64,000 nucleotides of DNA from Planctomycetota bacterium. Its GTDB lineage: Bacteria > Planctomycetota > UBA8108 > SXIK01. Positions 19,301 to 50,700 of the stretch are shown here, in pieces (the first letter of the stretch is position 1; each line of letters opens with the position of its first letter). The position numbers and the translations under genes were made by a program. The notes beneath the pieces were generated by a model. That model was not told the origin of the DNA and searched no databases. It was given only the letters and a program-made list of their open reading frames with translations. The stretch is taken from positions 4,091,822 to 4,155,821 of the forward strand of contig OZ244999.1 in assembly GCA_965223265.1 (NCBI GenBank). The letters run 5' to 3'.

Positions 19301-21797
19301 CATCACCGCCGAGCCCCAGGGAAACCTCAGCCACGTTGCCGTGCGCACCGCGCGACGCGGCACCCCCAACGCCTTCGTCAAAGACGCCCGCGACGTCTTC
19401 GCACCACTAGAAGGCAAGCTCGTGCGCCTGCAGGTCTTCGACACCGAGTTCTTCGTCGACGAGGTCGAGCTCGAAGAGGCCCAGGAGTTTTGGGACTCCA
19501 ACCGACCGCGCTTCGAACCGCCGCCCACGTTCGACGAGCTCTACAGCGCCCTCGACTCGCTCGCAGAGATCGACCTCGACAGCGACCCCGTCAGCCGCTT
19601 CGGCGGCAAGGCGAGCAACTTCTCCAGGCTCCAGCGCCTCCTCACCGGCACCTACCAGCAGTACCAAGAGCGCGGCTTCGCCATCCCCATGCACCACTAC
19701 CTGCGCTTCATGAACGAAAACACCCTCACACTCGAGGGCGGCAGAACCCTCACCTTTCAGCAACACCTCGACGAGATCCTCGCCGCCCCCGAGTTTCAGA
19801 GCGACTCGCAGCTGCGCTTTGAGGCCCTCGATGAGTTTCGCGATCGCGTCCGAGGCGAAGGCGTCGTCGACCCAGCACTGATCGCCGCGCTCGCTGTGCG
19901 CATCGAAGAGGTCTTCGGTGACACCACCACCATGGTGCGCTTTCGCTCCTCCTCCAACGTCGAAGACCGCCTCGTCTTCAACGGCGCCGGACTCTACGAG
20001 TCCACCTCGGTCTGCGCCCAGGACACCCTCGACCCCGCCTCCCCCGACGCCTCGCACTGCGACCCGACGCGCACCAATGAACGCACGATCGAACGCGCGC
20101 TCAAGAAAGTCTGGAGCAGCCTCTGGACCTTCAGAGCTCACGAGGAGAGGACCTTCTTTCAGATCCCCCCACAGCTCGCCTCCATGGGAATCCTCTGCAG
20201 CCGAGCCTTTCTTGACGAGAGCGCCAACGGCGTCGCCTTCACCGGAAACCCCACCAGTGTCGACGACAAGCGCTACGTCATCACCGCCCAGCTCGGCGAA
20301 GAGAGCGTCGTCAGCCCAGAGCCCGGAGTCTCGATCGAGCGCAGCTTGCTGGAAGTGGCAGGCGGCCAGGTCGTGCGCATCATCCGCGATCGCTCCTCAA
20401 CTCTTGTCCCACCCGGTGAGGTCATCCTCACCGACGAGCAGCTCATCGAGCTCGGAGGCGTCATGGCGCACGCCGACGCTGCGTTCGAGCTCGACCTCGA
20501 AGGGCACCAGCGGCGTGAGGTGCTGCTCGACTTCGAGTTCAAGATCGAGCCCGACGGTTCGCTCGCGATCAAGCAGGTGCGCCCTTTCCTCATTCCGAAC
20601 ACCGCGCCGAAAACGCCCACCTTCGAGCTCGAGGTGCCTGAGGGAAGCATGGTCTGCTCAGTCTTCTCCAAGGAGCGCGTCGGACGCGAGCCGCGCCGCG
20701 AGTTCGAAACCAAGAGCACCGTGCGGCTGGTGCCCGGGGTGATCACGCTGCCGACGGCCAGTGACACGCTCTCCGGCGAGCTCTTCGCTGAGGTGCGCTT
20801 CGGAGCAGCGCAGGAACTCGCCGTGCCGCTCGAGGACGGGCTCTTTCGACTCGAGAAGGTGAGCGCCGGCGGCAGTCTGACCACCTATCGATTCAGCTTC
20901 GAGCAGACCTTTGCCCTCGGTGAGAGCGACGTGCTCGCGCTGCGCGTCTTTGGCATCGACTTTAAGGGACGCGGCGAAGTGCCGATCGAGCCCGCCGTCA
21001 CCCTCAACGACGAATACCTGACGTTCGACCTCACCATGGAAGCAGAGCTCAACGGCGAGCCCATCGCAAGCTACTCCTCATGCACCTACTCCCTCCTGCC
21101 GCAGTTCGAGCTCGCCTTCGAACTCGACGGCGGTGACTCCATCAATATCAGAGAGCGGTTCCTCGAAGCCGAGAGCTTAACGTCCACCGGACCGGCGGCT
21201 GTCGTCCACGCTGCCGTGGAGCTCGGCGGCGAGCGTCGCGTCGTCACCGACTACTGGAAACTCGTCTACACCGCACAGCGACACAACTTGGAAGTACGCT
21301 ACTGGATTCTCTTCGAGCCAGCGATCTCCGCCGCTGGACTAGCGAAACCGGTTCACGCCGTGGAGGTCGCGCCGGCCGACCGTGAAATCGTCGTGCCGCC
21401 AGGTGCGCCGCCCATCGTAAGGCGCACCGAGTCGAGCGTCACGTTCCTCGACGCTGACTTTGAGCCTATTGCAACGCCCGCCGTCATCGACTTCTCGCGC
21501 CGCACGGTCGACTCGACGGAACCGCGGTTTCGCCGCGGTGACGTCAACTCCGATGGCATCATCGACCTCGCCGATGCTCTCGCCGAGCTCAGTTATCTAT
21601 TCCGCAGTGGTGAGACACCCGTTTGCCTCAAGGCTGCCGACGCCGACGATGATGGTCGACTCAACGTCTCCGATGCGATCACGATTCTTCTGCACCTGTT
21701 TCGAGGTGCTGGGCCGCTGCCGCAGCCGGGCGTCGCATGTGGAGTCGACTCCTCGTCGGACGCACTCGCATGCGAGTCGCAAAGCGGTTGCCGATAA
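16356..21797 (+). CDS. Giant secreted multidomain protein A (1813 aa): signal peptide, Ca-binding Cys-rich motif, FG-GAP repeats, PEP-utilizing phospho-His domain, PPDK_N ATP-grasp domain, unknown beta domain, C-terminal dockerin-like domain
   Basis: MLRPRPHIFAAIVCPLLCIALTAALSA signal. DCNFNGIEDGDE / DLDCNANGIPDTCE. Many FG-GAP repeats. GGVITAEPQGNLSHVAVRTARRGTPNAFV resembles the PEP-utilizers swivel His motif. GGKASNFSRL, VRFRSSSNVEDRLVFNGAGLYES and KKVWSSLWTFRAHEER resemble PPDK_N/PEP-synthase ATP-grasp motifs. C-terminal RRGDVNSDGIIDLADALAELSYLF...DADDDGRLNVSDAITILLHLF dockerin-like. Confidence 0.85.
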   Translation: MLRPRPHIFAAIVCPLLCIALTAALSAADCNFNGIEDGDETAQSTDLDCNANGIPDTCETAPPAFRARSVLSVGGVANSFPCGDVNGDEIPDVIAGHNRGFTVLLQRPAEREFDATDYPVDGAGKKWLLLDVDSDNDLDVVGVQTRRVVTFLNNGEAEFAGPVDTEFDSGVESFAAGDIDADGIVDVVLTNRVRDQVSVLFGRGDGRFDRAAHTAVGEFPLAVAIADLDGDGDLDVATANRDGNSVTLLSNDQGELGERQDVQVSGSSPQAIVAADFGGTSLPELVVGTLSSTLLLENRGGELTPRDLTVGLGIQQLSVTDVNGDGKDDIVGSILDPRAFWTLTSLDAGEFSLHSFNLGDRPEATEGCDLDGDGDSELCLGFFGLETVNVLWNDDSVERNFLSFGAPEFYEAGGRPHTAGTADFNGDGHLDLVTGNNRNSSTGMSVYINRGDGTFLPRAHYNSIARSFAMVVDDFDLDGHLEFAVADPSQNKPDIGVMRNRGDGTFVSSHTHNLTGGAFHVTSGDLDGDSFPDLVASMQGVGAVALLFNAGDGTFTNVTDIRVGARPVSAAVVDVDDDGHRDIAVATLSGGGIDLLRGDGSGLFSDPERFPLANSPSFVIAVDMNVDGAPDLVTVSESGQNATVLWNQGRGGFSASQPWPLRTKPYSVLEGDMNADGLPDIVALSELIGNFSLLLNGGDMTFSSPILLGTGPGPRYGAIGDFDGTGTDDLMSANRPGNSITVIRNQTDVASFPAAALELICTEKNFLDISRRVTTRGLTVRATKYVAPARADDASLLSTQYQNVNRFELHEEFLGAVFPERFPSLPGDREFYNQLIGRRATRDYYVGVLTRRQAESGPLYTFTAVTDTGFSVGEILEQEELEGLYTTLKESFTLEPLAYEPDTELARRKAETFQNPQFPVHFDDGAAGLDYEPYTLATGYGRVRLLTLEEFNDANDSGTFTFQDVLVVDLAPRDIEGIVGGVITAEPQGNLSHVAVRTARRGTPNAFVKDARDVFAPLEGKLVRLQVFDTEFFVDEVELEEAQEFWDSNRPRFEPPPTFDELYSALDSLAEIDLDSDPVSRFGGKASNFSRLQRLLTGTYQQYQERGFAIPMHHYLRFMNENTLTLEGGRTLTFQQHLDEILAAPEFQSDSQLRFEALDEFRDRVRGEGVVDPALIAALAVRIEEVFGDTTTMVRFRSSSNVEDRLVFNGAGLYESTSVCAQDTLDPASPDASHCDPTRTNERTIERALKKVWSSLWTFRAHEERTFFQIPPQLASMGILCSRAFLDESANGVAFTGNPTSVDDKRYVITAQLGEESVVSPEPGVSIERSLLEVAGGQVVRIIRDRSSTLVPPGEVILTDEQLIELGGVMAHADAAFELDLEGHQRREVLLDFEFKIEPDGSLAIKQVRPFLIPNTAPKTPTFELEVPEGSMVCSVFSKERVGREPRREFETKSTVRLVPGVITLPTASDTLSGELFAEVRFGAAQELAVPLEDGLFRLEKVSAGGSLTTYRFSFEQTFALGESDVLALRVFGIDFKGRGEVPIEPAVTLNDEYLTFDLTMEAELNGEPIASYSSCTYSLLPQFELAFELDGGDSINIRERFLEAESLTSTGPAAVVHAAVELGGERRVVTDYWKLVYTAQRHNLEVRYWILFEPAISAAGLAKPVHAVEVAPADREIVVPPGAPPIVRRTESSVTFLDADFEPIATPAVIDFSRRTVDSTEPRFRRGDVNSDGIIDLADALAELSYLFRSGETPVCLKAADADDDGRLNVSDAITILLHLFRGAGPLPQPGVACGVDSSSDALACESQSGCR

Positions 21798-26456: not shown

Positions 26457-27938
26457 CTATGGCCCCGGGACGGGATCGTCGGGCCCGATCGGCTCTCCCT
26501 GCCAGTAAGGCACACCGTCCCTGATCTCGAGCAATCGAACGCGCGATCCCTTCATGGGCGGCACGTTGACGCTTGGTAAAAAGCTCGCGAGTCGTTTCTT
26601 CGTTGCCGCGACGCTTTCGAGAGAGGCGATGTTCCTCCACTCCTCGGGATCCGTGCGCAGGTCGTAGAGCTCTTCGGAGCCGTCGGCGTAGCGGATGTAG
26701 CGAAAACGCTCGTCGCGTACGCCATGATTGTTCGGTCCGTGGGTTGTGATCGCCGGCCACTCGCGCGGCGCGCGGGCGTCCTTAAGCTGCGGCACCAGGC
26801 TGTGACCCTCGACACCGCTCGGAGCGGGCAGTTCGCAAAGCGCGGCGAGCGTCGGATAGACGTCCAACAGCTCGGCCGGTTTCGTACATCTCCCGCCGGC
26901 AGACACGCCCGGCCCGGCGAAGATCAAAGGCACACGCGTCGATGGCTCCCACAGTGTGTTCTTGCCAGTGATCAACTTGGAACCGAGGTGGTAGCCGTGG
27001 TCGGAAAAGAGCACCACGATCGTGTTGCGCGCCAGGCCTGTCTCCTCGAGGGTGTCGAGCACGCGCCCCACCATGGCGTCGACAAAACTGACACTTGCCA
27101 AGTAGGCACGCACTTTGTTTCGCCATTGACCATTCTGCCGCACCCACTCAAGTCTCGGTTCCGGTAGTTTCCAGTGGAGGTACCATGAGAACCTTGGCGT
27201 GTCTTCCCGGTCGTCTTCGCGCATCGAAGGCATTTGGAGTTCTTCCTCGGGGTAGAGGTCGAACCACTTCTGCGTCGCGAACAGAGGCACGTGTGGGTGA
27301 TAGAACCCAACGCTCAAGAAGAATGGCTGCGGAGGTGGGCTACGAAGTGTCTTGATTGCCCAGTCGGCAACTTTCCAGTCAGACTGCTCCTCATCACGCT
27401 CGGGGTAGACGCCCCAGTCAACCAGCGCGTGGCTCAGGCCGGGGACGATGCGTTTCTTGGGACGCGGCGCAAAGCCGCCGTGAAATCCCCAGACGTCGAC
27501 CTCAGACCCTGTCGTCCGGAGCTCTTTCGGCGGGTAGGCACCATGAAAAACCTTGCCCGTTGTCAACGTTCGATAACCGCCTGCGGTGAAGTGCTGCCAC
27601 AACGTCCGATGCGATCGCCACTTTGGGTCGGTACGAAACCATGGATAGAGGGCGTAAACTCCGGACGTCGACGGACGGAGTCCCGTCATGAAGCTCGTGC
27701 GCGACGAATTACAAAGTGGCGCCTGGCAATGCGCATTTAGGAAGACGGCACCGCGACTGGCGAGGCGGTCGATGTGAGGGGTTTTCGCCTGTGGGTGCCC
27801 ACCCAAACACCCAAGCCAATCGTTCAAATCATCGATGGCGATCAGAAGAACGTTCGGTCGCTCCGCGCCCCGCAGCGCAGCAGGGGACGACATCGACAAC
27901 ACAGCGCTAGCCAGCACGAACAAAGCGTGGAATCTCAT
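26457..27938 (-). CDS. Secreted sulfatase (arylsulfatase family) with a variant active-site signature C-N-S-S-R
   Basis: Signal peptide MRFHALFVLASAVLSMSSPAA. RPNVLLIAIDDL; PLCNSSRTSFMTG occupies the position of the canonical C-x-P-x-R-x(4)-TG motif but has Ser in place of Pro. C-terminal sulfatase fold motifs (LFSDHGYHLG). Confidence 0.85.
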   Translation of the reverse strand: MRFHALFVLASAVLSMSSPAALRGAERPNVLLIAIDDLNDWLGCLGGHPQAKTPHIDRLASRGAVFLNAHCQAPLCNSSRTSFMTGLRPSTSGVYALYPWFRTDPKWRSHRTLWQHFTAGGYRTLTTGKVFHGAYPPKELRTTGSEVDVWGFHGGFAPRPKKRIVPGLSHALVDWGVYPERDEEQSDWKVADWAIKTLRSPPPQPFFLSVGFYHPHVPLFATQKWFDLYPEEELQMPSMREDDREDTPRFSWYLHWKLPEPRLEWVRQNGQWRNKVRAYLASVSFVDAMVGRVLDTLEETGLARNTIVVLFSDHGYHLGSKLITGKNTLWEPSTRVPLIFAGPGVSAGGRCTKPAELLDVYPTLAALCELPAPSGVEGHSLVPQLKDARAPREWPAITTHGPNNHGVRDERFRYIRYADGSEELYDLRTDPEEWRNIASLESVAATKKRLASFLPSVNVPPMKGSRVRLLEIRDGVPYWQGEPIGPDDPVPGP

Positions 27939-28142
27939 GCCTGCACGACACCTCCGTCCCCAACGAAACACTCGGCGGCAAGTGGTCCGCATGCGCATGC
28001 GCACTCGACCTCGCGCACTGACACTCACCGCCACGGCGATGGCAACAGGGTATCACAGTCAGAGGCAATCTTGACTAACTTCGCGCTACTGAACTGCCCA
28101 CACGGTGCCCCAGAGGCCTGCGATGCGAAGCAGACACCAGGG

Positions 28143-29462: not shown

Positions 29463-30833
29463 TCAGAATCGAGCTTTGCTCGCCCGAGGCAGGGGCCAAT
29501 CGTCTGGCAGGCCAATCTTGGTGTCGACAAGAATCGCGAGCACGGCCTCGCGCTCCGCAGGCGGGATCGACGCCGAGACGCCTCGAGCATTTGTTTCGCC
29601 GGTCAGCACTTTCAGCAGCTCGGTGTAGATCCAATCGAGAAGCGGCGTCGGCAACGCGTCAAAGGCATCCGAATAGATCAGATAGCTGCAAGGATACTTG
29701 AACAGCCTGGTCGTTAGATCGAGTTGACGCAGCGACCGACCCAGGCGGTCCTTGGTGCCCCGCGCGACGAATTCGTCGGCAAATCCTGTGCTGCCGCGCA
29801 TCGGGACGGGCAGGGGGGCTTGCTCGAGGAGCAGCAACTCGCGCAGCAAGCGACCTCCGGCTTGAGCGATACGGCGCCTCGCGGAGGAACCGAGATATTC
29901 GCTGTCGCGGCCGTCGAGTCGGTTCAACGTCTCTTGTTGGTAGAGGGCAAGACGCACCTGATACGAGGCGGCAGCGATGGCATTGTGGAGACTCGTTTGA
30001 TGGTCGTGGACCAGGAGCGCGACAAGGTCGCTGTGCGATGTGACGTAGGGCGTCGTATCAAACAGAGTCGCAAGGTCGACATCATTTTTGTGCTGCGCCG
30101 CAAGGATCGACTCCGGCGTTGATGCGTCGCGAAGAACCCGATTGCCCATGTGTCGAGGCGGCACGTTCTTCCCCGTAACGTACCATCCCCCCCATCGCTC
30201 TTCGATCGGTGTTGCGTATGTGACGTCGATCGTACCGGCACGAAACAGCGGCAGCCCGCTCGCCAGCGGATACACCGATCGCACCAAGTGTCCAGGAACT
30301 CCGCGTGTGCGCCGCGAGTGGTGGCACTGAAGGCAAGAACCTCGATCGCGCTCGAAGCGCGGCGCCGTGACCGGCGACTGTACGAGGGTGTAGAAGACCG
30401 CGCCGCGTTCTGGGTCCACGGCTGAGATCTCTAAACGGTCGCCGCCTTGGACCCAGCCAACGTAGACATCTTCAGAGTAGTAGAGCGCCCTAGGTCTTCG
30501 CGGCGAGATGTGAGCCTGTTGCAGACTCGTCTTGGAAAACACGAGAAGCTGCGACGACGATGAAACGTCCAAGACCTCGAGTAGAGAATCGAGATAACCC
30601 CGCGTGCCGTGGTACTCGAGCTCAGCGTCGCCACGGTCGAGACGTCGCTGCAGCTCAGCAATCGGATCGCGCGTCGGACCGACGTGATAGTTAAACGGCG
30701 GCGCGTCGACCTCGAACTCGACGGCGGGGACCGACTCACGCAGGAGTCCGAGCAGAACAAAAATCGTGGACAGCCCCGTGCCAAGGCGTCGCCAATGGCG
30801 CGCCCTTCGGGGCCTCTCGTGTGGAGGCATCAT
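29463..30833 (-). CDS. Hypothetical secreted protein with a single CxxCH heme-binding motif
   Basis: Start at MMPPHERPRRARHWRRLGTGLSTIFVLLGLL (signal-like). Motif GSCLQCHHS. About 456 aa. Could belong to planctomycete cytochrome-like DUF families, but this was not verified. Confidence 0.55.
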   Translation of the reverse strand: MMPPHERPRRARHWRRLGTGLSTIFVLLGLLRESVPAVEFEVDAPPFNYHVGPTRDPIAELQRRLDRGDAELEYHGTRGYLDSLLEVLDVSSSSQLLVFSKTSLQQAHISPRRPRALYYSEDVYVGWVQGGDRLEISAVDPERGAVFYTLVQSPVTAPRFERDRGSCLQCHHSRRTRGVPGHLVRSVYPLASGLPLFRAGTIDVTYATPIEERWGGWYVTGKNVPPRHMGNRVLRDASTPESILAAQHKNDVDLATLFDTTPYVTSHSDLVALLVHDHQTSLHNAIAAASYQVRLALYQQETLNRLDGRDSEYLGSSARRRIAQAGGRLLRELLLLEQAPLPVPMRGSTGFADEFVARGTKDRLGRSLRQLDLTTRLFKYPCSYLIYSDAFDALPTPLLDWIYTELLKVLTGETNARGVSASIPPAEREAVLAILVDTKIGLPDDWPLPRASKARF

Positions 30834-31031
30834 CGTTTGAGGGCTCGAGTGTAACCCAAAGCGAGCAGGCATTTGAGCGCCCGGCGACACCCCGCGTCCC
30901 ATTTGCCCAACAAATCGGCCGATAACTCTTGCGTAAGGCAAACGTTCCGCTAACATGATGGAATCGCCTCCAATCCAGTCGCGCAGCATGGCAGGAGTGT
31001 CCATATCCCACGAGACAGAGGAGTTCTCGAT

Positions 31032-31298
31032 ATGGCCGTTGAATCCGCTCAGGACCTGCATCGCAACGATACTTGGTTGTCCCAGTACCGCTGGCTTCTC
31101 CACGTCCCCGATCTCGACGGGGACCTTCGCCGACTACAACGCCTTGTGGCGTTGGCTCTAGAGTACAGCGCCGAGGGTGATGACGTGGTCGAGGAGTTGA
31201 CCGCGGCTATCCGACGCGTCGCCGGCCGCCATGCGTCGGTTCTCGAGTCGCTGAGGCCAGAGCAGCGGGCAACTCAGAGCGACATCTTTCTCGGCTAG
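31032..31298 (+). CDS. Small hypothetical protein (88 aa)
   Basis: ATG preceded by GAGGAG at ~9 nt. Protein-like helical sequence (LSQYRWLLHVPDLDGDLRRLQRLVALALEY...). Upstream of the transporter operon. Unknown family. Confidence 0.35.
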   Translation: MAVESAQDLHRNDTWLSQYRWLLHVPDLDGDLRRLQRLVALALEYSAEGDDVVEELTAAIRRVAGRHASVLESLRPEQRATQSDIFLG

Positions 31299-31414
31299 TC
31301 GCCCAGGTCGCTCGTTGCCACTGAGCTCGCCAGCCGAGGATCAAGCCGCCGCGACGAGGTCAAAATCGGCGAGACGCGCCCGACCCCTTGACAACGGCGC
31401 ACTGTGGTCCAACC

Positions 31415-32707
31415 ATGGTCGCTCACCCGAGAAGCGAACTCATGCAAGACCGCAAACTGCCGCCAGGTGGTGGCAACGTCATCTGGGTGCTCTGGATTAC
31501 GTACGGCGCGTTTTACTTTTGCCGGACGAATATCTCGGCGACGGTCCCGAGCCTCGAGCGAGATCTCGGGCTGTCGAAGGAGCAGATCGGCCAGATCCTC
31601 GGTGCGCTCAAGCTGGCGTATGGCTTCGGTCAGTTCATCAACGGACAGCTGGCCGAGAGGGTCTCACCACGGATCTTGCTGGCCGTCGGCATGGTGACGT
31701 CTGCTGCACTTAACGTCGCGTTCGGGCTCGCCGAAGGATTCTATTTCCTCCTTTTCATCTGGGCACTCAACGGCTACTTCCAATCGCTCGGTTGGACGCC
31801 CTGCATGCGCGTCGCTGGTAACTGGTTTTCTCCGGTGCAGCGCGGCTTTGCGATTGGGGTGATCGGGACGGGATATCAAGCGACGGCGGCAGTCACCTAC
31901 CTCGTCTCAACGCAGGCCGTGGAGCACTTTGGTTGGCGCTTCGCTCTGTACATTCCGGCTGCGATGCTGTTTGCGGCCAGCGTCCATATGTTGCTTTTTC
32001 TCAAAGAGGGAAGACATAGTCCTCAGGGCGGTTTGCATCCGGCCACTTCAGCGCGCGGTCGACCGCCAATCGCCAAGACCGTCATGGCGACGCTCACGAA
32101 CCCGTCGCTTTGGATCTTCGCGGTAGCTCTTGGCCTCCTGAATGCGTGTCGCTACGGTTTTCTTGATTGGGGCATCGCTCACCTGCACGAGGTGCGTGAA
32201 GAGTCGGTCGGCAAAGCGGGCATCAAGTACATGCTTCTACCTCTCGGCGGCATTCTCGGCGCGTTTCTCTCCGGTTGGGTAAGCGACCGTATGTTCGCCG
32301 GACGGCGCGCCCCAGTGATCTGCCTCCTTCTCTTGTCGCTCGGCGCTCTGACGCTTTGGTATCGCGTCGCGGTCACAATGGGCGACGCCGCCACCATCAT
32401 CACACTGGTGTTCATCGGTTTCACGATCTACGGCCCGCAAGTGCTTCTTGTGGGTACCGCCCCCGTCGACTTCGCGCGCGACGGTGCTGGCGCAGCTGCG
32501 GTAGGCTTCGTGAACTGCATGGGATACATGGGAGCGTACGCCGGGGACGCAGTCACCGGGATACTGACCGCGAACTATAATTGGCGTGTGGCGCTGTCGT
32601 TCTGGGCGGCGTGCGCCTTTGCCGCGGCTGTTCTCGTCGCGATCTTGTGGGGCCGCAGCGCGGTCGAAGAGAAAGGCGAAAGCGCGGCGCAACCGCCCGC
32701 AACGTAG
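31415..32707 (+). CDS. MFS transporter, organophosphate:Pi antiporter (OPA; GlpT/UhpT/PgtP-like) family
   Basis: 12-TM profile. N-terminal WITYGAFYFCRTNIS resembles the GlpT-family first helix. Start ambiguous between 31388 (TTG), 31415 and 31442. Confidence 0.8.
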   Translation: MVAHPRSELMQDRKLPPGGGNVIWVLWITYGAFYFCRTNISATVPSLERDLGLSKEQIGQILGALKLAYGFGQFINGQLAERVSPRILLAVGMVTSAALNVAFGLAEGFYFLLFIWALNGYFQSLGWTPCMRVAGNWFSPVQRGFAIGVIGTGYQATAAVTYLVSTQAVEHFGWRFALYIPAAMLFAASVHMLLFLKEGRHSPQGGLHPATSARGRPPIAKTVMATLTNPSLWIFAVALGLLNACRYGFLDWGIAHLHEVREESVGKAGIKYMLLPLGGILGAFLSGWVSDRMFAGRRAPVICLLLLSLGALTLWYRVAVTMGDAATIITLVFIGFTIYGPQVLLVGTAPVDFARDGAGAAAVGFVNCMGYMGAYAGDAVTGILTANYNWRVALSFWAACAFAAAVLVAILWGRSAVEEKGESAAQPPAT

Positions 32708-32756
32708 CCACCGATCATCGCCCACGCTAGGAATCGCCACCCCGAGAAGGAATCTC

Positions 32757-33515
32757 ATGAAAGCCATCATCATCGGCGCCGGCCGCGGAAGACGACTCAT
32801 GCCGACGACTGCCGACACTCCCAAGTGCTTCGCCGAGGTGCAAGGCCGACGGATTCTTGACTGGATCCTCGAAGCCTTCGCGGGCGCGGGAATCACAGAC
32901 GTCTGCTTCATCGGCGGCTACCAGATCGACAAAGTTCGTGCTGATTACCCAAGTTTCGAATTCCGCCATAATCGAGACTGGGAGACGAACAACATCCTCG
33001 CGTCGCTCATGCATGCAGAAGATGTGATGGACGCCCCGTTTGTCTGTTGCTACTCAGACATTCTGTTCACGACCGACGTCGTCGCGAGGCTGATGCGCGC
33101 TCCCAACTCTATCTCACTCGCAGTCGACACGCAGTGGCTCGATCGATATACGCTGCGCACACAGCACCCGACCGACGACGCGGAGAAAGTCACCGTAAAG
33201 GATGGGACGATCAATCGTATTCACCGCAGCATCGACAGCGACTCAGCGTTCGGCGAGTACATCGGTGTGGCAAAGTTCGATGCGGCGGGCGGTGCAACTC
33301 TCATCGAGCAGTACCACCGCGCGCGCGAAGCCCACAGCGGCAAGCCGTTTCGCGAGGCGGAGGTCTTTGCTAAGGCATACCTGATCCACCTTTTTCAGGA
33401 AATGATCGAACGCGGCGTCGAGCTATCGTATGTCGAGACTAAAGGAGGCTACATGGAGATCGACACACAAGAAGACTTTGAGCTCGCACAAACGCAATGG
33501 CGAGGTCGGGTATGA
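32757..33515 (+). CDS. Nucleotidyltransferase (cytidylyltransferase, LicC/PntC-like; NTP_transferase fold)
   Basis: MKAIIIGAGRGRRL (G-x-G-x-R-L) signature of sugar/phosphobase nucleotidyltransferases. GAAGGA Shine-Dalgarno sequence upstream. About 252 aa. Confidence 0.7.
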   Translation: MKAIIIGAGRGRRLMPTTADTPKCFAEVQGRRILDWILEAFAGAGITDVCFIGGYQIDKVRADYPSFEFRHNRDWETNNILASLMHAEDVMDAPFVCCYSDILFTTDVVARLMRAPNSISLAVDTQWLDRYTLRTQHPTDDAEKVTVKDGTINRIHRSIDSDSAFGEYIGVAKFDAAGGATLIEQYHRAREAHSGKPFREAEVFAKAYLIHLFQEMIERGVELSYVETKGGYMEIDTQEDFELAQTQWRGRV

Positions 33516-34576
33516 CACCGGCGACGCTCTTCCCCAGTTCCGTCGTAGGCTCGATGCCCCGCCCGGCGTTTGTCCGGGAGCTGCTGAGTCAACAGGCTGA
33601 TCTGGCACCGCACGAATTTCGCCAGGCGATGGAACGCGCTGTCGCCTACGTCGTGTCTCTGCAGGAGCAAGCCGGACTCGACGTCGTCACCGATGGAGAG
33701 TGGTGGCGAAAATCGTATATCGGGATTATCGCGCAGCTCGCACACGGATTCGAACTCAGCCAGAGCCCCGACGGACGCCCTTGGACGATCGTCGTCGATA
33801 AGCTGTCGGCGAAGAAACCCGGGGCCGTTGCTGCCGAGATCAAGTATCTCAAACAGCTGACGACACGCCGCGTCAAAGCCACGTTGCCATCACCGGCGCT
33901 TCTTGGTGAACGCATGTGGGATCGCGAACGGTCGAGTGCAGCTTACCCGACGCGTGAAGCCTTTGTTCGCGACTGTGTGCCTGTCCTACGCCGCGAGTTG
34001 GAGCTCGTACGAGACGCGGGTGCCGATATCGTACAAATCGACGACCCACACCTCTGCCTCTTCGTCGATCCAAGCGTCAGGGAACGCTACGACGACCCTG
34101 AGGCTGCAGCACTCTTCGCGGCTGAGGTCGTCAACGAGGTCGTCGACGGCGTCGATGGCGTCCACTTGGCTGTCCACCTCTGTAGGCGCGCCGGAGCTCG
34201 AGTTCGGGGCGAAGCCGAGTTCCTCGGTGGGTATGATCCGATTCTGGACGCGCTCAATCGTCTGCGAGTCCACCACCTCACCATGGAGTTCACCGCGCCG
34301 GGCGTTGGTGATACCAGCGTGTTTCGGAAGCTCCGTGACGACTTCGAGATCGGGCTCGGTTGCGTCAGCGTCGAGCCTGGAAACGTCGACTCGGTCGACA
34401 CCATCGTCAAACGCGTCGAGCATGCCCTCGAATACCTCGCAGCCGAACGAGTGACGCTCAACCCCGACTGCGGTTTTGCCCCTGGTTCAGCGGCGGAGGT
34501 CAGCCTCGATGAGGTCTATCAAAAGCTCCGAAATGAAGCCGAAGCGTCGCGACAACTGCGGGCGAAATACGGCTGA
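33512..34576 (+). CDS. Cobalamin-independent methionine synthase (MetE) C-terminal-domain-like protein (UROD/MetE-like Zn methyltransferase fold)
   Basis: VQIDDPHL (cf. MetE IQIDEPA), HLCRRAG and NPDCGFA (cf. xPDCGL) Zn/His/Cys motifs. Start overlaps the previous stop in an ATGA arrangement, suggesting translational coupling. Confidence 0.7.
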   Translation: MTPATLFPSSVVGSMPRPAFVRELLSQQADLAPHEFRQAMERAVAYVVSLQEQAGLDVVTDGEWWRKSYIGIIAQLAHGFELSQSPDGRPWTIVVDKLSAKKPGAVAAEIKYLKQLTTRRVKATLPSPALLGERMWDRERSSAAYPTREAFVRDCVPVLRRELELVRDAGADIVQIDDPHLCLFVDPSVRERYDDPEAAALFAAEVVNEVVDGVDGVHLAVHLCRRAGARVRGEAEFLGGYDPILDALNRLRVHHLTMEFTAPGVGDTSVFRKLRDDFEIGLGCVSVEPGNVDSVDTIVKRVEHALEYLAAERVTLNPDCGFAPGSAAEVSLDEVYQKLRNEAEASRQLRAKYG

Positions 34577-34747
34577 TTCGATGAGAAAACGTCACACAGT
34601 GAACGCAGGACAACACCCCGACTAATCGTTCGTTTTTTGTTGCGCCGACTCAGATCCACCTCTAGTCTTGGCCTACTGTGTGTCTGCACGTGCCGTGGGC
34701 ATGTGTCCGAGGCCTCAAACACGGGGGACCAAGCGGGAGGGCGCTTC

Positions 34748-36409
34748 ATGCGTGACGCTGGAAACGTTGCGACACCATCACCATTGACACCATCACCATT
34801 GTCGTGCGCACGGTGCGGAGTTGCGGTGATGATCATCTCCGTATTCTGCACTCAATCCACCTCGGCACAGGAAGGCAGCGGTCTCGTCCGCGGGCCATAT
34901 CTGCAGGCTCTCGCCATCGATTCGGTGGAGATCATCTGGTTCACGCGCGACGTGGAGGGCGTCGGCAGCGTTCGAGTCTTCACGACCGCTGGCGAGGGGA
35001 ACGCCATGCGGGTGGAGGAAGACCCGGCGACGGCGTGCAACCCGTTTCTCGCCGGTGAAACTTGCCATCGAGTCCGGCTGACCGGCCTCCTGGCCGGGAC
35101 GAACTACAGGTACGAGGTCTTCGCCGGCGACACCATGCTTGCGGGCGACGCCGCGACGCGGTTTCGGACGACTCCCGAGCGTCAACATGGCGTCACGTCG
35201 TTCGCCATCCTCGGTGACAGCGGCGTCGCGCAGCCCTCCCAAGATCTCGTTTCGGAAATCGTCCGCGAAATCGACCCCGACGCGATCCTTCACACCGGCG
35301 ACCTGGACTACCTCGGCGACGTCGACAAGAGCGTCTTCGGACCCTACAAGGATCTTTTGTCGCGCTACTGCTTCTTTCCGGCGCGAGGCAATCACGACTT
35401 GAGCTTCAAGTTCGAGGAGATCTTCTTCGTTCCCGAAATCGACGCCATGCCGAAGCGCACGTTTTACTCGTTCAATGCAGGCAGCGCGCACTTCGTCGTC
35501 CTCGACACCAGCGTGCAGGAGACCGGCAATCTCCTTGGCGACGAGCAGTTGACTTGGCTCTGCGATGACCTTTCGAGCGGCCACGGCCAGGAGTGGACCA
35601 TCGTTCTGACTCATAAGTGTTTCTTCACAATCGGCCTCCATGCGACCGAGGCGACCGTCGCACTGCGGCATGCTCTCTCTCCGATCTTCGATCAGTTCAA
35701 CGTTGATTTGGTGATCTCCGGTCACGATCACAACTACCAGCGCACGCACCCGGTGCGTATGAACGACACGCGGAGCTGCGGCACCCAGGCACCGCTCAAC
35801 TGCGAGGCGACACCAGAGTCCTGCTACACGACGCGCGAGGATGTCTTTCCCGGGCCACACTACGTCTACCCCGACAGCCCGATCTACTTGATCAGCGGCG
35901 GCGGTGGTCAGAGGCTCTATCCGCTGCACCCCAGCGCCGGCAAGCCAGAATTCGACGGCAAGTTCTCGAGTTTCTTCGAAAGCGCCTGGCACACGGTAGA
36001 ACTTGAAGCCACGCCGGCGATGCTCAAGGTTCGCGGCATCCGCATCGTCAACCCGAACGACCGTCAGGAAGGCGATCCGTTCGGTGAGTCCTTCGACGTC
36101 TTCAGTGTCAGCAAGATGCGCCTCCTGCGCGGCGACATGAACTTCGACCGCGGGCTCGATCTGGCCGATCCCGTGGCACTCCTCAACAGTCTCTTTCTCG
36201 GTCAGTCTGCCGACTGCCTGGCGGCTGGCAACGTCAACGGCGACGAAGCGATCGACCTCGCAGACGCCGTGTACTTGTTGATCCACCTTTTCGACAGCGG
36301 TCCGCCGCCAAGCGCTCCTTATCCGGAGTGCGGCCCGATCCGCGACGCGAACGCCCCCGTACTCCTTGGCGAGGGCGATGTGAATTTGTGCCTGAGGAAC
36401 GGGTGCTGA
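34748..36409 (+). CDS. Secreted calcineurin-like metallophosphoesterase (purple-acid-phosphatase-like) with C-terminal dockerin-like domain
   Basis: GDSG...HTGDLDY...RGNHD...GHDHNYQR metallophosphatase motifs. C-terminal RGDMNFDRGLDLADPVALLNSLF...NVNGDEAIDLADAVYLLIHLF. Start ambiguous (34637 vs 34748). Confidence 0.8.
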   Translation: MRDAGNVATPSPLTPSPLSCARCGVAVMIISVFCTQSTSAQEGSGLVRGPYLQALAIDSVEIIWFTRDVEGVGSVRVFTTAGEGNAMRVEEDPATACNPFLAGETCHRVRLTGLLAGTNYRYEVFAGDTMLAGDAATRFRTTPERQHGVTSFAILGDSGVAQPSQDLVSEIVREIDPDAILHTGDLDYLGDVDKSVFGPYKDLLSRYCFFPARGNHDLSFKFEEIFFVPEIDAMPKRTFYSFNAGSAHFVVLDTSVQETGNLLGDEQLTWLCDDLSSGHGQEWTIVLTHKCFFTIGLHATEATVALRHALSPIFDQFNVDLVISGHDHNYQRTHPVRMNDTRSCGTQAPLNCEATPESCYTTREDVFPGPHYVYPDSPIYLISGGGGQRLYPLHPSAGKPEFDGKFSSFFESAWHTVELEATPAMLKVRGIRIVNPNDRQEGDPFGESFDVFSVSKMRLLRGDMNFDRGLDLADPVALLNSLFLGQSADCLAAGNVNGDEAIDLADAVYLLIHLFDSGPPPSAPYPECGPIRDANAPVLLGEGDVNLCLRNGC

Positions 36410-40164: not shown

Positions 40165-42294
40165 TTAGAATTCACAGCTCTTTGGCCGCGTGGCGCAGCC
40201 GACCGCACCGTCGGCATCGAGTGTTGTCGGTCCGCACCAAGGAAACGGAGCTACCGGCGGTGCGCTGTCGGCAACGAAGAGAAAATTGAGCAGCGCGATC
40301 GGATCCGAGATATCGACGCCGGCGTCACCGTTGACGTTCAGCGCAGCCTGGCAGATCGGCTCCGAGCCAGTGTTGGTGAACAGTGCGTTCAGCGTGCAAA
40401 CCGCATCAGAGATGTCAGCGTCACCGTCGTCGTTGCAGTCGCCACGACGGAGGATGATCGCTGGCAGCGACTTCTCAAGCTGCAGCGTCATTTCGCTGAG
40501 CAAATCAAGCCAGGCCTCCGCCGCGCTTGGGGTCAACCTGCGCTCATCCACAACCGTCTCGACCGCAATTGCGAACCGCCGCAGCGCGTCGAAAAACTCG
40601 TCGAGGTCGCCGCGCTCAGCAGCCAGAACGGCGAGTTCGATCTCTCGGGCCAGGAGACGGACGTCTTCGGGTTCGAGAAAGGGTCCCGCTTCGACTTCAC
40701 GCGTGAGAGCGTCGCTCACCGAGTGCAGGTCGCCGCGCGCCTGCTTCACAAGCCAACCGTCGAAGTAACCAACGGAACCATCATCCGCAGGCTCCTCAAG
40801 AAGAGCGCCGCTCGTCGTCGGGAAGTTCGAAGACCACGAGAGTCCACCAGCGTAGACGCAGCCGCCCTCATCGACCGCGATGCTCCTGCCGAGATCGAGC
40901 GGCTCTAAGAGGAAACCCCCGCCCTCCGCCCCTCCCAGAGTCCTCGACGACTGGAGTGTTCGCCCGGTAGCGGAGACGACGGCGATGAACGCATCTCCCT
41001 TAATGTCGATGAAGCTATTCTCCGGGGGGACCGGAAATCCCGGTCGTGCGGCTCCGGTAACGTATGCCCTGCCAAAGCTGTCCACGTCGACTCGCTTGCC
41101 AGTGTCAGCACCGCCGCCGCCCAAATAAGACAAATAGACGAGTGCACGCCCGTTGGCGGAGATCTTTCCGACCCAGGCGTCCGCCCCACTTTCAGGAGAG
41201 AGATCGCAGCCGCACTCACGCTGAAACGCAAAGTCCGTCACGGGAAGGTCGCTCGAGGCGGTGTCGCCCGTCGCGTAGATATTCCCATCCGGGCCGATCT
41301 CGAGACCAAAGATGTGATCCGGTCCCGTGCCGCCCAGATATGTCGAAAAGACGAGCATGTTGAGACCGATCTTCGTCGGGTCGATCTTGGCGACCCAACC
41401 GTCGACGCTGCCGATTCTGTTCTCCTCGTAGACGCCGGTCGTGGTCGGAAACCCTCCCTCGGTATCTCCACCAACGTAAAAGAAGCCCTGCGCATCTACG
41501 GCAGCGCCTTGGGCCGTATCTTCGCGATCACCGCCGAGATAGAAACCACTGTACTGGACGCCGTTTTCGAGGAACAGAGCGACGAACCCGTCGGTACGTC
41601 CACCGTTGTATGTGAAGTCGAAGCCGAATTCGGTCACTGCAAAATCGCCATCCGTTGCGCCGACAATCATGACGCGTCCCTGGGGGTTGACGGCGATGTC
41701 GAATGCCTCGTCGTTTCCCGGACCGCCGAGATAGGTCGAGTAGACGATGGTCGTCGCGTCCGCGGTCAGCTTGACGACAACGGCGTCCCGCGGCGGTTGC
41801 TCTTGAGAAGGGTCTGTTGCCCCGTCGCCAAGCTCGCTCTGATGCGCCGCGACGGTCGGAAAGTCACCCGATCGAGTGAATCCCGTCACGTAAATGCTGC
41901 CATCGGCACCTATGGCCACGCCCGTGGCTTCGTCGAAACTGCTGCCACCGATGCGGCTCCCGCCCTCCAAAATCTGACTTCCGTCTGGACTGACCCGTAG
42001 GACGAAGATGTCGCCCTGGCCACAGTTTCCGAAGCTGTTGCACCCCTCCTGCGTCAAGACCCCCATCACACTTTCCGAACTGCTGGTACCGACGACAACC
42101 AAGTTGCCGTCCGGTGCCACAGCGACCGCGTTGATGGTGTCGCCGGAAGGGCCACCGAAGTAGGTACTGAAGTCGATCTCCGCGGCGACGAGGCGGAACA
42201 CGCCGAGCCCAGCAGTTCCAGCCGTGAGTGTTACCAGAATGACCGCGAGCCGGCGAAAGTGAACAAGTGAGGGCATGGTTGACGCACAGAGCAT
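40165..42294 (-). CDS. Secreted SBBP-type beta-propeller-repeat protein with C-terminal dockerin-like domain (tandem paralog 2)
   Basis: Same architecture as 37348..39456 at about 55-60% identity. Signal MLCASTMPSLVHFRRLAVILVTLTAGTAGLG. Dockerin RRGDCNDDGDADISDAVCTLNALF...NVNGDAGVDISDPIALLNFLF. AAGGAGA Shine-Dalgarno sequence before the ATG at 42294. Confidence 0.8.
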   Translation of the reverse strand: MLCASTMPSLVHFRRLAVILVTLTAGTAGLGVFRLVAAEIDFSTYFGGPSGDTINAVAVAPDGNLVVVGTSSSESVMGVLTQEGCNSFGNCGQGDIFVLRVSPDGSQILEGGSRIGGSSFDEATGVAIGADGSIYVTGFTRSGDFPTVAAHQSELGDGATDPSQEQPPRDAVVVKLTADATTIVYSTYLGGPGNDEAFDIAVNPQGRVMIVGATDGDFAVTEFGFDFTYNGGRTDGFVALFLENGVQYSGFYLGGDREDTAQGAAVDAQGFFYVGGDTEGGFPTTTGVYEENRIGSVDGWVAKIDPTKIGLNMLVFSTYLGGTGPDHIFGLEIGPDGNIYATGDTASSDLPVTDFAFQRECGCDLSPESGADAWVGKISANGRALVYLSYLGGGGADTGKRVDVDSFGRAYVTGAARPGFPVPPENSFIDIKGDAFIAVVSATGRTLQSSRTLGGAEGGGFLLEPLDLGRSIAVDEGGCVYAGGLSWSSNFPTTSGALLEEPADDGSVGYFDGWLVKQARGDLHSVSDALTREVEAGPFLEPEDVRLLAREIELAVLAAERGDLDEFFDALRRFAIAVETVVDERRLTPSAAEAWLDLLSEMTLQLEKSLPAIILRRGDCNDDGDADISDAVCTLNALFTNTGSEPICQAALNVNGDAGVDISDPIALLNFLFVADSAPPVAPFPWCGPTTLDADGAVGCATRPKSCEF

Positions 42295-42800
42295 GTGGTT
42301 CTCCTTGGCGGGTAGCAGACCGCTAGACAGGAATGCACTCCGCGTGCCTCGCTCTTGACGAGTCAACGAGTCGCGCATTCGCTCCTGGCCTTGCTGCACA
42401 AACACGTGAGTAGAAATCAAATGGCCTAAGCGCATCCCCCTCCGCACGCCGCTCGATCCTTGCAGCATTCTGCCATAAAACGTGAGCGCACGGGCCCAAG
42501 AACCGGGGCGACCGCCTGTCTGATGACGACGGAGAGTAATCCGCGGCGGCCGAGCGAGCTCCGTTCCTCTTTCTGATGGACCGTCGCGACCTGTCTGTAT
42601 CGCGAGCGCGAACTCGTCATGACTCAACGCACGTCCTGCTACCGCAGCGGGTGCCAGCGTCTGACCACCGCGGACGCATCAACCACTGCCGCAACAGAGT
42701 CCGGGCTTCACGACAGCGTGCAAGAGAACGCGTGGGACGATGTCGATCCACCATCGAAGGCCGACGTGAGTCCGCCCCTGCCCTTGCGCTCGAGCTCAAC

Positions 42801-47739: not shown

Positions 47740-50700
47740 TCAATCGCACGGCGCGTATGACGCGCAATCGAGCGCATCCGCGGTGAGATCGCGACCGCAA
47801 AACGGAAACGGGGGCGCGATTCCAGCTTCGCCGCCGAAGAGATGCAGCAGGACCCTGATCGGATCGGAGACGGTCAAACGCCCGTCATCGTCAACGTCTG
47901 TGGACTTGAGACAACTCGGGATGAGGCCATCGCGAAAAAGGAACTCGAGCGCGTAAATCGCATCGGCGAGTTGTATGTCGCCATCAGCGTTGGCGTCGCT
48001 GCGGCGAAATCGGACATCTATCGCAGTGTCCGTGAGCCGCTGAAACGCGTTCACTTCAACCGCCGCGATGACCTGAAAGTCGCTGTCGAGATAGGCCGCG
48101 GCCGGGTTCGGCATGATCGGCGGCTCGGGTGCGGCGAGTTCAATTGCCCGCACCGGTCGTTCAACGAGCGCCAAATCGATCGGCGGATCAAAGACGATGA
48201 GATACTTCACGAAAGTATTGTGACGAAATGACGCATAGACGAGATTCCAGTAGTCCGCCACACGCAGATACGCTGATTCCGCAGCGACTTCGGCGGCGAC
48301 CAAGCTTGCCGGTCCGGTGCGACTTGGGTCTGGGCTAGGGATCGAGCGCTCTCGCAACCTCAGGCTCGTGCCATCCGCGAGTTCGGCCTCGATCGCCCAG
48401 AGGTCGAGAAGTTCGTAGGTGCACGACGAATACGCCACGCGCAGTGCGGCATCGCCGTCCGAGAATCCGGTCATGAAAAGCTCGTCGGTGATGAACTCTT
48501 CGTCAAGGATGACCTCACCGCGCTGCGGAACGCCGCCGGCAGCGCTAAACTCGACGTCGTCCAGGGTCACGACGAATGTTTCCCCGGCCGTACCTGGCAA
48601 GCTGAAGCGCTGCTCGTAGGTAAAACGATAAAGTGTCTCGCCGCCCGCACCGGGCCGTTTCGTCGCGCGCATTCGCCCGCGGCCGAGCGGCGTCGCTGTC
48701 ACCTGCGCAGGCCCAATCAGCACTTCGTCGATCAGGTCTAAACTGATCGATCCGGTCCGCCCGGCAAGCTCGAAGGTACCTGCACGCAGTCGTACGCGGC
48801 TCTTCGACGCCAGTCCGACCAAAGGGTCTTCTTCCGGAGCATTGACGTCGAGGACACCGCAGACGCTCGTCTCAGCGGGAATCTCCAGGACAAACATCGG
48901 CGTCGGTTGCCGCTCGGAGGTCAAGAGGAATGGCCGCACCTGCTTGACCGCCAGATCGCCGCTTGCTTCGATCTTGAACTCAAGGTCGAGCAAGACGTCG
49001 TCACGATCATGTTCGCCAAGAACGACGGGGAAATTCTGGTCCATGTGCCACATGACGGCGCCGAGCTCGCGGAGCGCCGCGTCGGTCATGACCAACGCAT
49101 CGCTCTCCACGAGCGTCGAACGCGTGGCGCGGATGATCTCCACGACCTCGCCGTCGACCACGTCGAGGAGCGTTTTCTCCGGCAACACGCCGGGTTCGGG
49201 ACTGACGACACTCTCCTCGCCAACTTGTGCTGTGACGACAAAGCGCCGGTCGTCAGGGTTCGCCGGGTCGCCAGTGAACGCGACGCCGTTGACCCGCTCG
49301 TCGAGGAAGGCGCGATTGACCAGAATGCCCATCGCGGCACTCGCCTGGGGAATCTGAAAAAAGGCGCGCTCTTCGTGGGCACGAAAAGTCCACAGGCTTG
49401 TCCACACCTTCTTGAGCGCACGCTCAAGCGTACGCTCGTTCGATTTGCTCGCGTCACAAAGCGATGGTCCCTCGTCATCACCGTCGAGCTGATCGGCTAG
49501 GCACGCTCCCGTGGACTCGTAGAGGCCAGCGCCGTTGAACTCGAGTAGGTCCTCGACGTTCGACGACGAGCGAAAACGGATCGATGTAGTCGCAGAAAAA
49601 ACTTCTTCGATACGGCTCCGCAGCAAAGCCAGAAGCTCGGGTGAAACCACGCCGGTGTCGCGCGCGACGTCGCGAAACGCCTGCAGCGCTTCAAAGCGCC
49701 GTCGTGAATCCGTTTGAAAATCCTCGAGCGTTGCGAGCTCGGTAAGAAACTCCTCGTACGAGACCTGACGGCCCGGATCGACCGGCGATGCCGTCCGGTT
49801 CCCCCGCATGAACTCCGTGTAGTAGCGTACGGGGATCGCGAAGCCTTTCTCGCGGTAGTCGGCAAACACTCCATCGAGAATCGTCTGCAGACGCGCGAGA
49901 TTGCTCGCCTTGCCGCCAAAGCGGGACTCCGGCAAGCCGCCCAGATCGAAGTCGGTGAGACGGTCCAGCGCTGCGTAGTTCGCGTCGAACGGCGGCAGGG
50001 CTGGCAACTGCGGTCGGTTCTCCTGCCAAAACGCCTCGGCGTCGGACAAATCCGCCGGGCTGACCTCGAACGAACTCTCGGTCACCTCGAGGCGGATCAA
50101 CTGATCGTCGAAAGGCGAGAAGCGTGCGCGCGCGTCCGCGACGAACGCGTTTGGCGTTCGTCGGCGCGCGGTGCGTACGGCAACGTGGCTCAAGGTTCCT
50201 TGTCGAGAACCGGTGATGACGCCGCCGACCACTCCCTCGATGTCACGAGGTGCTTCGTCGATGACGAGGACATCCTGAAACGTGAAAGCACCCGCTGCGT
50301 TCGCCGCCTCGAACTCCTCGAGCGTCAGCACCCTCACGCGCCCGAAACCGACTCCCGTCGTGTAAGCCTCAAAGTCGACAGCAGGGCCGGTATCGATGTC
50401 CAGAAGCACCTCAAATCCTGGATTCAACCAGCTTTCGGCGGTCTCTCGCGCAATCGGCGTATCCGGTAGATACGCAAGCGGCTGCAAGCTGATCGACTCG
50501 CGCAGGCGGTCGTACACATCCTTGACCTCAGCGACACCCAGCGCTTCGGACGCGCCGCTCCCGGTGTCAGCAACGACAGTAAAGGCATACACAAATGCGC
50601 CATCCGAGCGCAGTCGCTTGAGCGAACCGACATAGTAGTCGCGCGTCGCTCGGAGGCCAACCAATCGGTTGTACTCGGCTGGCCCCAGCGCCGGGAAGCG

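Follow-up and report, generated by a model that had tools for sequence, protein, structure and literature searches.

A widespread nucleotidyltransferase and MetE-like gene pair, often preceded by an organophosphate transporter-like gene, as a possible partner-dependent methionine synthase cassette

A stretch of 64,000 nucleotides from the genome of a Planctomycetota bacterium (assembly GCA_965223265.1, contig OZ244999.1, positions 4,091,822 to 4,155,821; referred to below as the window, with positions counted from its first nucleotide) carries consecutive genes for a putative organophosphate transporter of the major facilitator superfamily (MFS), a nucleotidyltransferase resembling LicC and PntC (NT), and a single-barrel zinc enzyme of the MetE family (METE). 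The conserved unit at this locus is the NT-METE pair, often with the MFS gene upstream, and represents a three-gene cassette rather than the four-gene operon proposed in the initial annotation, in which a downstream metallophosphoesterase gene had been included. It is proposed here, with somewhat less than even confidence, that the cassette specifies a partner-dependent, folate-independent methionine synthase for which a nucleotide-activated organophosphate would serve as the methyl or alkyl donor. The four genes are as follows.

31415..32707 (alternative start 31443), + strand: OPA-like MFS transporter, 430 aa (PF07690, 158.8 bits)
32757..33515, + strand: NT, LicC/PntC-like nucleotidyltransferase, 252 aa (PF12804, 40.4 bits)
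33512..34576, + strand: METE, single-barrel MetE-family zinc enzyme, 354 aa (PF01717, 95 bits)
34748..36409 (open reading frame from TTG 34637), + strand: secreted calcineurin-like metallophosphoesterase (PF00149, 55.5 bits)

The four family assignments that had been made from the sequence alone thus hold, each protein matching the Pfam family indicated, and the reported ATGA overlap of the cytidylyltransferase and MetE-like genes is present at 33512-33515, the NT stop codon occupying 33513-33515 and the METE ATG being located at 33512. This start agrees with the length of METE in the protein collection for this genome (354 aa; P0121), while the MFS and NT genes are separated by 49 nt.

Conservation of the neighbourhood was followed in two samples, the first consisting of 83 loci from species-representative genomes and the second of 80 metagenome loci picked by two METE motifs alone, 64 of which had enough upstream sequence. 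The METE gene is located directly downstream of the NT gene in 71 of the 83 genome loci (67 of the 77 with room), at 50-70% identity, and 58 of the 64 metagenome loci have the NT gene immediately before that of METE. Immediately before NT, 49 of the genome loci (46 of the 75 with room) carry the MFS gene, at 50-61% identity, and it is present in 14 of the 40 metagenome loci with room for it. In addition, NT and METE occur as single proteins of 499-624 aa (P0243-P0249), in which all motifs of both halves are kept, in lineages resembling the candidate phyla radiation (CPR) and in archaeal-looking ones, including Peregrinibacteria and Magasanikbacteria entries, and a search for longer NT relatives retrieved one MFS::NT fusion protein. 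A EukProt gene model of 1036 aa (P0241) contains MFS, NT and METE in collinear order, with 45%, 66% and 67% identity to the respective proteins of the window, and is either a real fusion that arose after transfer or the result of merging gene models on bacterial DNA that contaminated the set. Taken with the counts of adjacent genes, the fusions rule out a chance adjacency of NT and METE, and place the two proteins in one pathway. The candidate operon of the initial annotation is thereby retained as an MFS/NT/METE unit conserved across many phyla, with its fourth gene falling outside.

No further partner recurs across phyla in Pfam tallies of about 310 neighbouring open reading frames (ORFs), the sulfatase, LarA, EamA, cyclophilin and isochorismatase genes seen beside the cassette being confined to related lineages. 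Two such neighbourhoods are mentioned as observations in their own right. In one lineage the cassette is followed by genes for a PNP_UDP_1 phosphorylase and a cytidine deaminase, and in Poribacteria (locus L052, 5025-6960; locus L044, 4032-6173) a myo-inositol-1-phosphate synthase-like gene and a bicupin gene closely precede NT-METE in the same orientation. The hint of a CDP-inositol that the latter arrangement gives was set aside, being limited to one lineage.

With regard to METE, PF01717 spans residues 12-349 of the 359-aa ORF, which contains no further domain, and the MetE N-terminal domain PF08267 has no match in the genome at E <= 1e-30. The AlphaFold2 model of METE, with a predicted local distance difference test score (pLDDT) of 85.8, retrieves in Foldseek the C-terminal barrels of MetE proteins and the MesD structure 3rpd at TM scores of 0.78-0.80, and 3rpd is also the best sequence-profile match (4.6e-32; structural TM 0.80, approximately 19% identity). 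The zinc ligands H222, C224, E259 and C320 are invariant among 26 METE sequences, occupying the alignment positions of the zinc ligands in 3rpd, 1ypx and MetE, and the homocysteine-binding triad S14, E63 and D177, as aligned by HMMER, is invariant in the 26 sequences as well. Four zinc ligands and three homocysteine-binding residues are the criteria by which core methionine synthases are recognised, enzymes whose methyl source has yet to be established (Price et al. 2021, PMC7857596). METE furthermore possesses invariant residues specific to its own family (R225, R226, R230, H180 and C182) and the family motifs DDPHLCLFVD and HLCRRxGxRxRGE, with three arginines directly after H-x-C.

NT gives weak matches to many nucleotidyltransferase models and is far under the cut-off of all NCBIfam equivalogs. 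When a profile of the NT family (34 members) was compared with PDB sequences, LicC was the best match (4.3e-16, spanning NT residues 2-114) and PntC the second (1.5e-11), with MurU and sugar-1-phosphate enzymes ranking after these two. The AlphaFold2 model of NT (pLDDT 92.9) has as its top Foldseek matches PntC-AEPT (TM 0.78), LicC (1jyk; 0.75) and the inositol-1-phosphate cytidylyltransferases (IPCT; 0.73), its lead over RmlA-type enzymes being marginal. The LicC/PntC-like assignment made initially is thus borne out by profile and fold, and the class that was to have overturned it, the sugar-1-phosphate nucleotidyltransferases, comes behind LicC and PntC on both counts. Motifs in common with LicC and PntC are the N-terminal GxGxRL..PK nucleotide-binding signature, NNxxSL and the catalytic Asp, and the 42 invariant NT positions include an Arg/His/Lys-rich segment (W127..R130..R134..H137..K144), a basic lid which would suit an anionic substrate. 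From these features NT is probably a small-molecule nucleotidyltransferase of the cytidylyl type. Homologs of NT at 60-73% identity, as well as homologs of METE, run into thousands in metagenomes, their names being generic or conflicting.

The MFS protein has its best NCBIfam matches among members of the organophosphate:phosphate antiporter (OPA) family, namely the PgtP subfamily model TIGR00881 (216 bits), GlpT (179 bits) and UhpC (176 bits), which supports the OPA-family assignment of the initial annotation, though it remains below the cut-off of every named member (407.75, 632.55 and 564 bits, respectively). It aligns over its full length with the Escherichia coli GlpT structure 1pw4 (2.5e-42), and in this alignment both substrate-binding arginines (GlpT R45 and R269) are kept, together with the changes K80 to Q and H165 to Y. 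Judged by this alignment, the protein is a putative organophosphate:phosphate antiporter.

A regulatory link to S-adenosylmethionine (SAM) was observed in a part of the METE family, at three distinct loci. SAM-I riboswitches (RF00162, gathering score 44.4) are located 170-220 nt upstream of the fused NT::METE gene at L103 (64.5 bits) and L190/L191 (62 bits), and also upstream of a METE-only gene at L146 (55.2 bits), the riboswitch-bearing loci forming one CPR-type METE subclade (100/99). SAM riboswitches switch genes on under SAM shortage. In the CPR-type subclade the gene is followed by one for a class-I-methyltransferase-like protein of approximately 210-250 aa, 32-50% identical between loci (L103, 6871-7494; L110, 4362-5108; L146, 3562-4320; L190, 4911-5411), which was not found in the genome of the window. 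The methyltransferases adjacent to the cassette at L105 and L106 were considered as further cases and rejected, being homologous neither to this protein nor to the methyltransferase domains fused to NT relatives. Other neighbours of the fused loci are a MetRS-like fragment or a PALP enzyme, the latter overlapping the fused gene at L106.

According to the proposed mechanism, the OPA-type antiporter would import a small organophosphate or phosphonate, NT would join this compound with a nucleoside triphosphate (probably CTP) to generate a nucleoside mono- or diphosphate conjugate, and a zinc-activated thiolate at METE, most likely that of L-homocysteine, would take a methyl or small alkyl group from the conjugate to yield methionine. 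Inferred in this scheme are the direction in which compounds flow, the use of homocysteine as thiol, methionine as product and the nature of the donor. Considering the LicC/PntC-like NT and the intact phosphate-binding arginines of the transporter, a small organophosphate or phosphonate is the most likely input of the cassette; the invariant R225, R226 and R230 of METE, next to the zinc ligands, are listed for the same link. Considering the intact zinc and homocysteine sites and the SAM-riboswitch control in one clade, the most likely output is a supply of methionine or of a SAM precursor. Zinc-thiolate alkylation with a phosphate or diphosphate leaving group is carried out by protein farnesyltransferase and by Ada acting on methyl phosphotriesters, and BHMT performs zinc-thiolate alkylation with a quaternary-ammonium donor. 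By analogy, a choline-type quaternary-amine headgroup would be a chemically natural donor, a CDP-choline-like compound being only one candidate. A more specific version, that NT and METE constitute a fifth family of folate- and B12-independent methionine synthases whose donor is, for example, a CDP-choline-like or methyl-phosphate-type conjugate made from environmental esters imported by the OPA transporter, is conceivable but rather doubtful. No description of a nucleotidyltransferase-MetE-like pair was found in the literature, the nearest published concept being the partner-dependent core methionine synthase of the MesD/MesX type.

Several observations weigh against a methionine synthase with such a donor. 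MetH is present in the genome of the window and in 41 of 50 cassette genomes, the other nine possessing other PF02574 homocysteine methyltransferases, and none of the 50 carriers was found to depend on the NT-METE pair. Canonical MetE occurs in one of the 50 carriers as compared to 20 of the 301 genomes of the phylum sample, and since it is rare in the phylum anyway, no anticorrelation between the cassette and MetE can be claimed. Rfam searches detected no riboswitch in 37 non-CPR loci (among them the window, L106, L107, L144 and L156) and the fused loci of CPR type, L105 and L110, gave no match either. What ties the cassette to SAM regulation is consequently a single clade, distinct from the subclade of the window. 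One of the riboswitch loci, L146, is without NT, and the conserved extra partner of the CPR-type clade is the class-I-methyltransferase-like protein rather than the MFS transporter. Members of the NT subfamily also occur fused to SAM-dependent methyltransferases and are then followed by an MFS gene (35% identical to that of the window) and a TagF-like glycerophosphotransferase gene, a setting that suggests surface polymers and not methionine. Finally, the substrate amine is contacted by acidic residues in LicC (D105 and D192, next to an aromatic box for the quaternary amine) and in PntC (E104 and E196; PMC6697681). These appear to correspond in NT to Tyr99 and Ile210, as read from a by-eye extension of the HMMER alignments; both residues are invariant in the family and do not favour choline or 2-aminoethylphosphonate (AEP) as the substrate.

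In the genome of the window, which contains MetH and a second core MetE-like gene but, in the PF08267 search at E <= 1e-30, no canonical two-barrel MetE, the cassette would accordingly serve as an accessory pathway that may spare B12. The second gene (G000:C1:7471449-7472372, locus L101; 355 aa, 26% identical to METE) adjoins a lipid A acyltransferase-like gene.

An accessory character is also apparent from the distribution of the cassette. Carriers belong to Verrucomicrobiota, Planctomycetota (several families), Acidobacteriota, Poribacteria, Chloroflexota, Lentisphaeria, Omnitrophota and Alphaproteobacteria, with 50-73% identity between most of the phyla compared; the Planctomicrobium piriforme and Fuerstiella entries among them are metagenome-assembled genomes. 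None of the 40 nearest relatives of the genome contains an ortholog of the cassette, their best MetE-like matches being other paralogs of at most 36% identity; the matches of 35-36% in relatives G025 and G037 were rejected as orthologs, since they represent different paralogs with OsmC/TusA neighbours. An NT ortholog is present in three of the 301 sampled genomes of the phylum, that of the window included. In a maximum-likelihood tree a long branch separates the paralogs from a single clade (100/99) that unites all METE sequences, those of the riboswitch loci and of the window included, and the phyla are intermixed inside this clade. The patchy distribution and the intermixing of phyla constitute the pattern of a horizontally transferred accessory unit. 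The conservation in relatives that was put forward as a check of the initial annotation is therefore absent at close range, the cassette missing from the 40 closest genomes and from 298 of 300 other genomes of the phylum, and is found instead across phyla.

The explanation that survives best next to a methionine synthase, although itself unlikely, is the one closest to the initial annotation, namely uptake of a phosphocholine-like or AEP-like headgroup, its activation as a CMP or CDP conjugate, and its modification or methylation by METE for use in lipids or surface glycans. The ranking of LicC and PntC as the closest relatives of NT speaks for it, as do the fusions of the NT subfamily to SAM-dependent methyltransferases with the MFS and TagF-like phosphotransferase genes that follow, and, at lower identity, the fusions of this subfamily with LicD, phosphoenolpyruvate (PEP) mutase, aminotransferase and CDP-alcohol transferase domains. 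Nucleotidyl activation also precedes methylation in fosfomycin biosynthesis. However, no LicD, CDP-alcohol phosphatidyltransferase or TagF-like gene is recurrent beside NT-METE in about 160 loci, LicA, LicB and PEP_mutase are equally missing from the recurrent cassette neighbours, and LicD was not found in the single-contig genome of the window, where the control genome was positive. Matches to PF13714, an unspecific family, are located megabases from the cassette. METE moreover keeps the homocysteine-binding triad, and SAM riboswitches suit the supply of SAM over its use. MetE-family enzymes alkylate thiols, and N, O or C methylation by a member of this family is not known. Headgroup methylation, as it was first suggested, consequently fits less well than transfer to homocysteine, given the triad, the riboswitches in CPR-type loci and the lack of LicD or another headgroup transferase.

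Some relatives of the NT subfamily are noted here for their architecture. The fusions to SAM-dependent methyltransferases are proteins of about 500 aa with 29-45% identity and many metagenome members, and the regions that hold them together with the MFS and TagF-like genes (L108, 7001-11113; L109, 1426-5538) look like a surface-polymer decoration module. A protein of 1906 aa (P0266) combines an NT-family domain with PEP-utilizer/PPDK_N phosphotransfer domains and a TagF-like domain, and a gene for a PEP-utilizer-domain protein (L110, 678-2132) is located directly upstream of a CPR NT::METE fusion. Such PEP-utilizer partners may be an alternative way to a phosphorylated substrate.

Synthesis of homocysteine or methionine independent of pyridoxal phosphate (PLP) is a further, improbable explanation, in which O-phosphohomoserine or another amino-acid phosphate of this kind would be converted by NT into a CDP-activated ester of the homoserine type, and METE would displace the nucleotide with zinc-bound sulfide or methanethiol. 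The conserved zinc site and homocysteine triad of METE would then hold the amino-acid part, and the basic segment of NT together with R225, R226 and R230 of METE would be appropriate for a negatively charged amino-acid phosphate and for a nucleotide as the leaving group. Source annotations group many NT homologs with the Campylobacter L-glutamine-phosphate cytidylyltransferase, which has an amino-acid phosphate as substrate, and the overlapping PALP gene at L106 and the SAM riboswitches of the CPR-type relatives point in the same direction. Nevertheless, no precedent is known for such a reaction, and an importer of phosphohomoserine is ecologically implausible, yet the MFS gene is present in about a third to more than half of the loci. 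The available data do not separate an activated-ester route from methyl transfer.

Lower still in probability is a role of the cassette in detoxifying or scavenging an organophosphate that is reactive or contains sulfur, be it by ring opening of fosfomycin or another epoxy-phosphonate with a thiol, as epoxyalkane:coenzyme M transferase does with its substrates, or by the salvage of methylthioribose-1-phosphate. Transporters of the GlpT/UhpT type import fosfomycin, and epoxyalkane:coenzyme M transferase is a MetE-family zinc enzyme. This role would be compatible with the patchy accessory occurrence, with the mixing of phyla in the METE tree and with the PNP_UDP_1 phosphorylase and cytidine deaminase genes that follow the cassette. 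These genes are however restricted to one lineage, an importer is unexpected in a detoxification unit, and so is an amino-acid binding triad for a thiol of the coenzyme M type.

Least probable of all, and hardly to be entertained, is a four-gene phosphate-scavenging operon in which the secreted esterase would release organophosphate for the transporter: the genes share a strand and are close together, and the esterase is probably secreted and has a dockerin-like module, but a homolog of it adjoins NT-METE in none of the 83 genome loci, no Metallophos family is found among the recurrent metagenome neighbours, 171 nt separate METE from the likely esterase start, the tag is common to four other exoproteins of the window, and a phosphomonoesterase or diesterase would destroy the phosphate ester instead of supplying it.

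The metallophosphoesterase is thus an independent secreted enzyme and a neighbour of the cassette, not a member of it, as the 0/83 count implies, and its inclusion as the fourth member of the operon has to be withdrawn. The gap behind METE amounts to 60 nt up to the TTG codon and 171 nt up to the first ATG (34748), which precedes a signal-peptide-like segment. The N-terminal domain is purple-acid-phosphatase-like (PF16656, 24.1 bits, below cut-off), and a dockerin-like module is located C-terminally, at about 36104-36364. This tag has no Pfam match at E <= 10, and its matches among PDB dockerins reach no better than E 0.31 and 0.6, both with the two repeats in register. A module of approximately 85 aa is nevertheless common to five secreted-looking proteins of the window, with 34-49% identity (E down to 1.6e-13), the other carriers being encoded at 40165-42627(-), 16356-21797(+), 47740-53202(-) and 13299-15812(+); the module is C-terminal in four carriers and N-terminal in 13299-15812. 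Since the phosphoesterase module matches the 16356-21797 copy (2.8e-10), which in turn matches the CelS dockerin of Clostridium thermocellum (E 7e-4), its dockerin identity has transitive support only. The dockerin tag described initially is therefore without direct Pfam support and is made plausible through the 16356-21797 copy in the window. By virtue of this module the phosphoesterase appears to belong to a local set of dockerin-module exoproteins. Two of the carriers, the giant ORFs 16356-21797(+) and 47740-53202(-) of 1813 and 1820 aa, are full-length paralogs with 41% identity; a PDB sequence search of 16356-21797 returned the dockerin module only, and the earlier label of PEP-synthase-like was not confirmed.

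Upstream of the cassette, two further features were delineated.

31032-31298, + strand: ORF of 88 aa without a Pfam family, overlapping the 3' end of the opposite-strand ORF 29463-31103
31104..31414, + strand: 5' intergenic leader of the cassette, containing most of the 88-aa ORF

The 88-aa ORF is probably outside the cassette. While the four closely spaced same-strand genes of the initial annotation and their families stand, the start at 31032 that was given for the group belongs to this unrelated ORF. The base composition of the region is ordinary, no promoter-like (sigma-70-like) site was seen in a simple scan, terminator-like sites are no commoner in such a scan than in shuffled sequence, and no Rfam family reaches its gathering score in the window. 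A gene of the sulfatase/alkaline-phosphatase superfamily is present 3.4 kb upstream of the cassette (26457-28034, - strand). Homologs of this sulfatase (35% identity) are located divergently beside the MFS gene in several Fuerstiella loci, which may be due to chance, planctomycete sulfatases being very common.

A nucleotidyltransferase as the partner of a methionine synthase, sometimes fused to it and often accompanied by an importer, would imply a methyl or alkyl donor of a chemically new type, and the compact system of two or three genes lends itself to tests in E. coli. If the proposed function is true, the methionine metabolism and B12 dependence reconstructed for many uncultivated genomes of the PVC group, Acidobacteriota, Poribacteria and CPR would have to be revised, the genes of the cassette being listed in them at present under the names 'MetE' and 'choline kinase / phosphocholine cytidylyltransferase'. 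A connection would then exist between dissolved organic phosphorus and the metabolism of one-carbon units and sulfur amino acids, and a further case of nucleotide activation before group transfer would be added. Should the methionine synthase reading be wrong, the cassette is still a widespread and strongly conserved gene pair that is worth an assay.

Each of the three proteins can be set against a known system. The transporter resembles the OPA antiporters GlpT, UhpT/UhpC and PgtP (TC 2.A.1.4) in its best NCBIfam matches, its alignment over the length of GlpT and its retention of R45 and R269, and differs from them in scoring approximately half of the respective cut-offs or less and in having Q and Y in place of GlpT K80 and H165. 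NT has the fold of LicC (1jyk) and PntC (6pd1/6pd2; Rice et al. 2019, PMC6697681) at TM 0.75-0.78 and finds its best profile matches in these enzymes, but is only 17-20% identical to them, matches PF12804 weakly, carries a basic lid segment of its own family and has no ppm, LicA, LicB or LicD partner beside it. METE shares with canonical two-barrel MetE the catalytic barrel, the zinc site and the homocysteine site, and differs in being without the N-terminal folate-binding barrel.

The closest resemblance is to the core methionine synthases MesA-MesD, and to MesD/MesX in particular (Price, Deutschbauer and Arkin 2021, PMC7857596). As in these enzymes, METE consists of a single Meth_synt_2 barrel without the N-terminal domain and has all four zinc ligands and all three homocysteine-binding residues, and as in MesD/MesX it is tied to a dedicated adjoining partner gene. 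The marks of MesD/MesX, an adjacent DUF1852 gene and >70% identity to ACIAD3523-type MesD, are however both lacking in METE, and MesX (PF08908) has no match in the genome, a search in which the control genomes were silent as well. METE is approximately 19% identical to the MesD of the Shewanella structure 3rpd and forms a clade separate from the paralogs compared. Its partner is not a corrinoid protein or MesX (DUF1852) but a nucleotidyltransferase, to which it is sometimes fused, and the pair is further distinguished from the core methionine synthases by the METE-specific motifs and by the organophosphate transporter gene that is often located beside it.

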